Positions 9,272 through 9,754 of a stretch of DNA of 15,832 nucleotides are shown piece after piece. Source of the DNA: a virus. Lineage: Duplodnaviria; Heunggongvirae; Uroviricota; Caudoviricetes. The stretch lies in the IMG/VR virus record IMGVR_UViG_2675903609_000009; one strand, given 5' to 3'. The translations under genes were made by a program, and so were the position numbers. Within the stretch, counting starts at the first letter, position 1. Each line of letters starts with the position of its first letter. The notes beneath the pieces were generated by a model. The model ran no database searches. It was not told the origin of the DNA and saw only the letters and a list, made by a program, of their open reading frames with translations.

Positions 9272-9754
9272 TCAGGTCTGCGTAGTTCTCCGTTGGCGGC
9301 TCCGGTGTGCCCTTGCTGCTCTGTTTTNNNNNNNNNNNNNNNNNNNNNNNNNNNNNNNNNNNNNNNNNNNNNNNNNNNNNNNNNNNNNNNNNNNNNNNNN
9401 NNNNNNNNNNNNNNNNNNNNNNNNNNNNNNNNNNNNNNNNNNNNNNNNNNAGTGAAGCGATCCGGCATTGTTCTTTTTCATCTCTTCCATCATTTTTTCA
9501 GTGAGCATTACGCACTGAAACCCCATGTTTTTGATGTCTACGGGTTTCATGCCTTTGTCAGTGGATATCACAGGCAGAATATCCTGATACACATCGCGGT
9601 CAGGGTAACTAAGCACACAAAGCGCCCATGATGCCACGGGTGAGGATCCTTCGTCTGTTTCAACCCACCAGCCTGGTGTAGCTGCGCTTATTTGCAGAAT
9701 CGTGATCCGTCCGTTGTGCTTGTAAAATTTTTCACCAAATTTTGGTTCGCTCAT
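9272..9754 (-). CDS. Hypothetical protein, 3' part obscured by N run 9328..9450
   Basis: Strong Shine-Dalgarno (GGAGAGG) 7 nt upstream of ATG 9754; start overlaps stop of the upstream gene (ATGA); about 100 readable N-terminal residues with no recognisable family; true stop unknown. Confidence 0.5.
   Translation of the reverse strand: MSEPKFGEKFYKHNGRITILQISAATPGWWVETDEGSSPVASWALCVLSYPDRDVYQDILPVISTDKGMKPVDIKNMGFQCVMLTEKMMEEMKKNNAGSLHXXXXXXXXXXXXXXXXXXXXXXXXXXXXXXXXXXXXXXXXXXNRAARAHRSRQRRTTQT

Follow-up and report, generated by a model that had tools for sequence, protein, structure and literature searches.

Analysis of a 15,832-nt stretch of viral DNA (IMG/VR record IMGVR_UViG_2675903609_000009, class Caudoviricetes; hereafter the window) led us to conclude that a small minus-strand gene next to its origin-like region, which we call FAM, is almost certainly a complete gene of 101 residues located at 9452..9754 plus the stop codon. 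Judged by its gene content, the element carried in the window is a capsid-forming phage-inducible chromosomal island (cf-PICI) of the EcCIEDL933 type, a satellite of E. coli that adjoins phoQ, and FAM is already on record as a conserved hypothetical gene of these islands. We propose in addition that FAM is an optional accessory effector that binds another protein. Taken as a whole, this statement has about an even chance of being right, its mechanistic part standing well below its annotation part. FAM would be made from the post-origin operon upon induction of the satellite, would bind a protein of the host or of the helper phage rather than DNA, and would act outside the core of satellite replication or packaging.

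The first-pass annotation of this region had described an open reading frame (ORF) at 9272..9754 on the minus strand, interrupted by an N run at 9328..9450, with about 100 readable residues and a 3′ part hidden by the mask. Both the ORF and the N run are present in the sequence, and translation of the 160-codon frame gave 101 readable residues (MSEPKF...NNAGSLH), 41 X codons corresponding to the 123 masked bases, 17 further residues and a stop. However, the protein is not partly hidden: its readable part ends at His101, where the identical protein of the relatives stops at a TGA. Base 9451, where the readable sequence ends, is the T opening the codon that follows His101, and it is the only readable base of the inferred TGA stop (9449..9451). 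Comparison with the closest complete Escherichia coli genomes showed 100% identity across 9451..9800 and 9172..9327. In the relative loci L001 (strain MFDS1006657) and L002, the 101-residue protein WP_001294165.1 is followed by TGA right after His101, then by GGTGGCAAT and then by the ssb ATG; the L002 protein is 100% identical to the readable residues of the window. Close homologues are all 101 residues long except for one allele of 104, and P0001, at 99% identity, represents 167 sequences. It is because relatives with fully identical flanks stop at this position that we consider FAM complete; against this stands the masking of two of the three stop-codon bases in the window.

The possibility that the true ORF comprises ~160 codons with a masked C-terminal part, or that there is no gene at all, appears very remote to us, even though the frame stays open to 9272 through the mask and the stop codon is unreadable at two of its three bases. 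Besides the TGA and the homologue lengths given above, the sequence beyond the mask argues against it. In relatives, as well as in two IMG/VR contigs, the flanks of the mask are 61 bases apart instead of 123, and a search of viral and metagenome contigs found no public sequence with a flank spacing of 110-135 bases. The relatives' 61 bases correspond to the last two bases of the stop codon, the ribosome site of ssb (GGTGG) and ssb codons 1-16, and the 17 residues that follow the mask (9272..9327, minus strand, 'NRAARAHRSRQRRTTQT*') are a remnant of ssb and perC (ssb'/perC') read out of frame. By this alignment the N run covers the end of the stop codon and, of the ssb remnant, its ribosome site and opening codons, not the end of FAM. 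The window contains two other N runs (4541..4671 and 5635..5706), and the lengths of the three, 131, 72 and 123 bases, compare with ~173, 15 and 61 bases in near-identical relatives. Since all three disagree, the number of Ns in each run is probably not the true length of the hidden sequence. The existence of a conserved family and a confidently predicted fold, described below, speak against the absence of a gene. Aligned with its relatives, the 160-codon ORF is an artefact of translation through Ns and should not be annotated, and the FAM protein is readable and open to study without closing the gap. Other ORFs across N runs are likewise unreliable, among them 9110..9631 (plus strand), 9094..9468 (minus) and 5538..5975 (minus).

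FAM matched along its whole length a protein family of unknown function, phrog_27268 (E=7.6e-70, residues 1-101 on profile positions 1-104). In agreement with the first-pass annotation, which had seen a genuine gene belonging to no recognisable functional family, Pfam, NCBIfam and PADLOC contained no family of known function matching FAM, and searching the same three collections with 52 family members returned scattered chance matches only. A phmmer search against 1.84 billion representatives gave 7 matches. Two rounds of profile search raised this to ~60 clusters at 90% identity, restricted to Enterobacterales and all annotated as 'hypothetical', and the second profile iteration, over 5.8 billion proteins, gained no remote relative. 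The genera represented are Escherichia, Salmonella, Klebsiella, Citrobacter, Serratia, Morganella, Proteus, Providencia, Xenorhabdus and Photorhabdus. Among 50,697 phage records none matched the family, and 72,556 plasmids gave a single match, while a scan of genome contigs provided 4 further loci. Literature searches by accession, PHROG identifier and context words returned no study of the protein.

Family members are proteins of ~100 residues, rich in tryptophan and acidic, with a median isoelectric point (pI) of 4.7 and a median net charge of -7; FAM itself has a pI of 5.6. Five residues (W29, W30, W43, C46 and P61) are invariant in the 52 sequences of alignment A2, and the conserved core motifs GWW, SPVA(A/S)WALC, ILPV and GM.P all occur in FAM. 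The pairwise ratio of non-synonymous to synonymous substitution rates (dN/dS) was 0.30 for FAM, compared to 0.23, 0.22 and 0.18 for its neighbours ssb, perC and the primase gene. Judged by these substitution ratios, FAM is under purifying selection and is a real, constrained protein. The mean AlphaFold2 confidence (predicted local distance difference test, pLDDT) rose from 42.7 with the single sequence, an unusable model, to 84.3 with the family alignment. This rise, together with a dN/dS that resembles that of the neighbours, indicates that FAM is a real coding gene. The model consists of a beta-rich core plus a C-terminal helix and found no confident structural relative; SH3-like small beta barrels, such as bacterial SH3b/GW domains or the C-terminal domain of retroviral integrase, are candidate folds with which the predicted structure may be compared. 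A profile search of the PDB did return TAL effectors, with E-values down to 4e-15, a match that we rejected as an artefact arising from a short LLPVL..G..P motif summed over the repeats: no single stretch was significant alone, and the Pfam model was touched by one of the 52 members (E=0.0011).

The surroundings of the family gene were inspected in 16 contexts (the window, L001-L004, L007, L010-L015 and L018-L021), plus L026. In every one of the 16 the gene is placed just downstream of the satellite replicase and of an AT-rich, repeat-bearing gap of 250-460 bases, and all 16 members reside in satellites with integrase, AlpA and primase. In the window, an upstream gene of 92 codons, up92, intervenes between this origin gap and FAM. 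What lies downstream is more diverse, namely ssb, with or without proQ, and then perC in E. coli, Serratia and Salmonella; proQ in Salmonella, Providencia and Photorhabdus; and a small ORF followed by capsid genes of the HK97 or lambda E/D type in Morganellaceae and Klebsiella. The family gene overlaps ssb by 4 bases in L010, L011 and L021. With respect to up92, the family gene may come after it (the window), precede an up92-like gene (L020) or itself carry the up92 C-terminal tail (L010).

One and the same E. coli allele (at least 95% nucleotide identity) was found behind three unrelated replicases: a D5_N primase in the window, L001 and L002, a RepA helicase with different iterons in L003, and a DUF927 protein in L026. 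Otherwise near-identical islands exchange replicase-origin cassettes (window ~10005..12066 compared with L003 and L026). The RepA helicase cassette carries CCCACTT-type repeats and the D5_N primase cassette GGTAGAYAG iterons, and the breakpoint of the swap falls inside the 5′ end of up92. Of 5426 complete E. coli genomes, 1784 (about a third) have the island-type ssb, and in the sampled ssb islands origin, up92, ssb and perC usually follow one another with no member of the FAM family among them; the three E. coli FAM subtypes occur in 82, 33 and 28 genomes. Compared across these loci, the space between the origin and ssb forms a small swap slot that FAM occupies in some islands and not in others. 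Given the varied replicases, the varied neighbours and the frequent absence of the gene, FAM is tied to no single initiator or packaging strategy. Of four sampled E. coli islands carrying the island-type ssb, three have up92 as their origin-proximal gene, with ssb immediately behind it; up92 is as uncharacterised as FAM and apparently much commoner.

At loci where the family gene is origin-proximal (L004, L011-L015, L019 and L021), a TATATA-like -10 motif was present 10-25 nt before its start, right after the last origin repeats. This arrangement suggests a promoter abutting the iterons, possibly controlled by replicase occupancy. A search for a LexA box upstream of the family gene found none in 14 loci.

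The proposal that FAM is an effector follows from its being small, acidic, Trp-rich, optional and possibly a beta-barrel, and we favour a protein over DNA as its partner because of the median pI of 4.7, the net charge of -7 and the invariant residues W29, W30, W43, C46 and P61. Several points weigh against this reading. The function that we propose draws on size, charge, position and patchy distribution, and none of the mechanisms is backed by a homologue of known function; a role linked to replication would explain just as well why the gene keeps to the origin side and often overlaps ssb by 4 bases; and a pairwise dN/dS of 0.3 gives no signal of an arms race. The main rival is accordingly a replication-phase accessory, that is, a protein working with the satellite single-stranded DNA-binding protein (SSB) or with single-stranded DNA at the origin, for instance by recruiting or shielding the replisome or an SSB-associated factor. 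We regard it as improbable, though as the most serious of the rivals. It would account for the constant location of the gene after replicase and origin gap, for the frequent 4-base coupling to ssb and for co-transcription with ssb in the E. coli islands. Nevertheless, one allele serves three unrelated replicases with different iterons, most islands with the same ssb lack FAM, the family occurs without ssb in islands of Morganellaceae, Salmonella, Klebsiella and Photorhabdus, an acidic protein is an unlikely DNA binder, and FAM is intact in the window despite the deletion of ssb. Thus, neither co-variation with the replicase or iterons nor an obligatory association with ssb was observed, and no homology to a routine replication accessory protein, the result that the first-pass annotation had named as speaking against its own idea, was found.

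That idea was interference with helper-phage packaging or capsid in the manner of the Staphylococcus aureus pathogenicity islands (SaPIs), which we do not favour and consider about half as probable as a replication accessory. FAM is small, acidic and optional, as such a protein might be, and its position is analogous to that of the SaPI post-origin operon. But the family is found in satellites with their own HK97 capsids, with lambda E/D-like capsid genes, or with no recognised capsid genes in the examined stretch; because it spans these differing capsid types, it tracks no single packaging strategy. Moreover, it travels with ssb, proQ and perC genes, and no PHROG, Pfam or fold match linked it to a known interference protein. 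Less probable still is a toxin-antitoxin-like pair formed by FAM and up92. What recommends it is that the two genes are small and overlapping, with a basic up92 product (pI 9.0) beside the acidic FAM (pI 5.6), and that the FAM model is loosely CcdB/MazF-like, with MazF and Kid among the weak Foldseek matches. Those matches to type II toxins of the CcdB/MazF kind did not exceed a Foldseek probability of 0.23, and up92 is not a partner in fixed order, being absent or reversed in most contexts.

Returning to the optional, protein-binding effector, a bolder version of this proposal can be formulated, although we hold it as doubtful. FAM might be the founding member of a class of small acidic effectors that is peculiar to satellites and has a fold absent from PDB and BFVD; such effectors would occupy the swap slot between origin and ssb and would neutralise a host or helper protein (e.g. 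a nuclease, a defence sensor or a replication factor) during induction.

The interference proteins of classical PICIs and SaPIs (Ppi, PtiA/B/M and CpmA/B, and Rpp of EcCICFT073) are small and encoded downstream of the satellite origin, as FAM is. No sequence or fold similarity between FAM and Ppi, Pti, Cpm, Rpp or other described interference proteins was detected with Pfam, PHROGs, NCBIfam, PADLOC and fold searches, and, unlike those genes, the FAM family is linked to ssb, proQ and perC and is present in satellites for which redirecting capsids is unnecessary. PsiB and ArdA are small acidic proteins encoded beside ssb in the leading regions of plasmids. By analogy, the FAM family may be likened to them in being small, acidic, co-transcribed with the SSB of a mobile element and often close to a gene of the FinO/ProQ family.

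The closest known counterpart of FAM is WP_001294165.1, the E. coli cf-PICI hypothetical protein of phrog_27268, which is identical and encoded at the same place, between up92 and ssb. Compared to the islands carrying it, the window has lost ssb-perC and has the FAM stop masked, whereas the protein shows no difference. The O157:H7 cf-PICIs carry the same gene with 98.4% nucleotide identity. Like the cf-PICI prototype EcCIEDL933, the window contains int, alpA, the primase gene and a complete HK97-type head and terminase module, without tail or lysis genes; unlike the prototype, its island is defective. PerC-like genes of PICIs have been discussed in the literature. In the parts consulted of the cf-PICI papers, the packaging module and the tail adaptors are treated, the published mutational analysis is limited to the packaging module (bioRxiv 10.1101/2022.09.08.507074), and the passages searched mention neither FAM nor ssb.

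Assignment of the window to the cf-PICIs relies on Pfam matches to integrase, AlpA, primase and an own head and terminase module, together with the absence of tail and lysis genes. Its genes are arranged in the order int, alpA, a DUF4222 gene, primase, iteron origin, up92, FAM and the ssb'/perC' remnant, after which come the head genes: capsid (broken), protease, portal, head closure/connector proteins, HNH, TerS and TerL, with TerS assigned from the L001 annotation, as the corresponding region of the window is partly masked. The replicase (10318..12066, minus strand) is a primase-helicase with D5_N, DUF5906 and Pox_D5 domains. The HK97-type major capsid gene (7755..8960, minus strand; probable start ATG near 8912) is interrupted at 8085..8087, where Trp275 of the relatives is replaced by an in-frame stop that splits it into ORFs 8085..8960 and 7755..8084. 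From this nonsense codon, the satellite is probably no longer able to build its own capsids; nonsense codon and ssb-perC deletion together indicate that the island is defective and decaying. The left end of the window (1..1461, plus strand) is the host sensor kinase gene phoQ, which places the insertion beside phoQ; L001 is inserted there too, with roxA on the far side of its integrase. Scanning the window for Rfam families and tRNAs gave no match.

The immediate neighbourhood of FAM largely bears out what the first-pass annotation had said of it. The gene lies between the origin and the capsid operon, six exact iterons being located in 10154..10304 and the capsid genes on the other side, and its translation is coupled to that of the gene upstream: the stop of up92 (9751..10029, minus strand, 92 codons; phrog_1231, function unknown; basic) overlaps the FAM start by 4 bases (ATGA). 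The Shine-Dalgarno sequence of FAM, GGAGAGGTGG, sits within the last codons of up92. It had been called the strongest ribosome-binding site of the region; with a duplex energy of -11.0 kcal/mol it is indeed strong, but those of portal (-12.4), up92 (-12.3) and HNH (-11.9) are at least as strong. The good expression credited to FAM in the first-pass annotation is an inference. The origin-like intergenic region (10030..10317, 288 bases) contains GGTAGAYAG / CTRTCTACC iterons in both orientations. The six exact GGTAGAYAG copies compare with an expectation of 0.13, and none of 200 shuffles reached six; degenerate copies, also in both orientations, are present as well in this region, which separates up92 from the primase stop (10318).

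Within the end of up92 there is a conserved junction of ~39-40 nt (9763..9801, minus strand, coordinates counted by hand; GCGGAACAGGTAACAACAATCAACGTTAAAACCGGAGAG). This ~40-nt sequence (GCGGAACAGGTRACAACMATCAACGTTAAAAMCGGAGAG, peptide AEQVTTINVKTGE) holds the ribosome site of whichever gene follows and was seen in the window, in L010 (6304..6338) and in L001, L002, L003, L016 and L017. The gene that comes after it is FAM in the window and ssb in L010 and L022-L024. The junction resembles a joint left by recombination, or else a cassette providing translational coupling for genes that are swapped in between the origin and ssb.

Downstream of FAM, the readable part of the ssb'-perC' fusion remnant occupies 9216..9326 (minus strand), with the expected reading KQSSKGTPEPPTENYADLRNAVNRTYADMGLSKLAE*, the frame and stop in window coordinates having been derived by hand from the L001 sequence. 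When aligned to L002, where both genes are intact, the window proved to have lost ~503 bases, so that ~25 codons from the start of ssb run into the final ~28 codons of perC, with a 5-base microhomology at 9303..9307. L001 carries the same deletion, and its annotation lists ssb and perC pseudogene fragments. The small operon ends at a terminator-like hairpin (9176..9193, minus strand; AGCCGGAGCAATCCGGCT followed by a T run; fold z-score -3.2). In L001 (7297..7627) and in L003, an extra gene of 74 residues (WP_001132078 type) lies between two terminator copies of CAGCCGGAGCAATCCGGCTTTTT, whereas the window (9172..9194) and L002 have a single copy and lack the gene, a presence/absence polymorphism between direct repeats.

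The cf-PICIs, which were recognised as a class of satellites only recently, are widespread, and their non-packaging genes are almost unstudied; intact copies of FAM are present in O157:H7 and other Shiga-toxin-producing strains. On present evidence, FAM is one among many conserved hypothetical genes of mobile elements, and the finding is largely ordinary. Only the pattern seen at the level of the family, its restriction to satellites and its place in the slot that separates origin from ssb, merits experimental follow-up. Being satellite-restricted, fixed beside the origin and easily deleted, the FAM family offers a tractable candidate for a factor that may mediate the interaction of the satellite with its host or with its helper phage.
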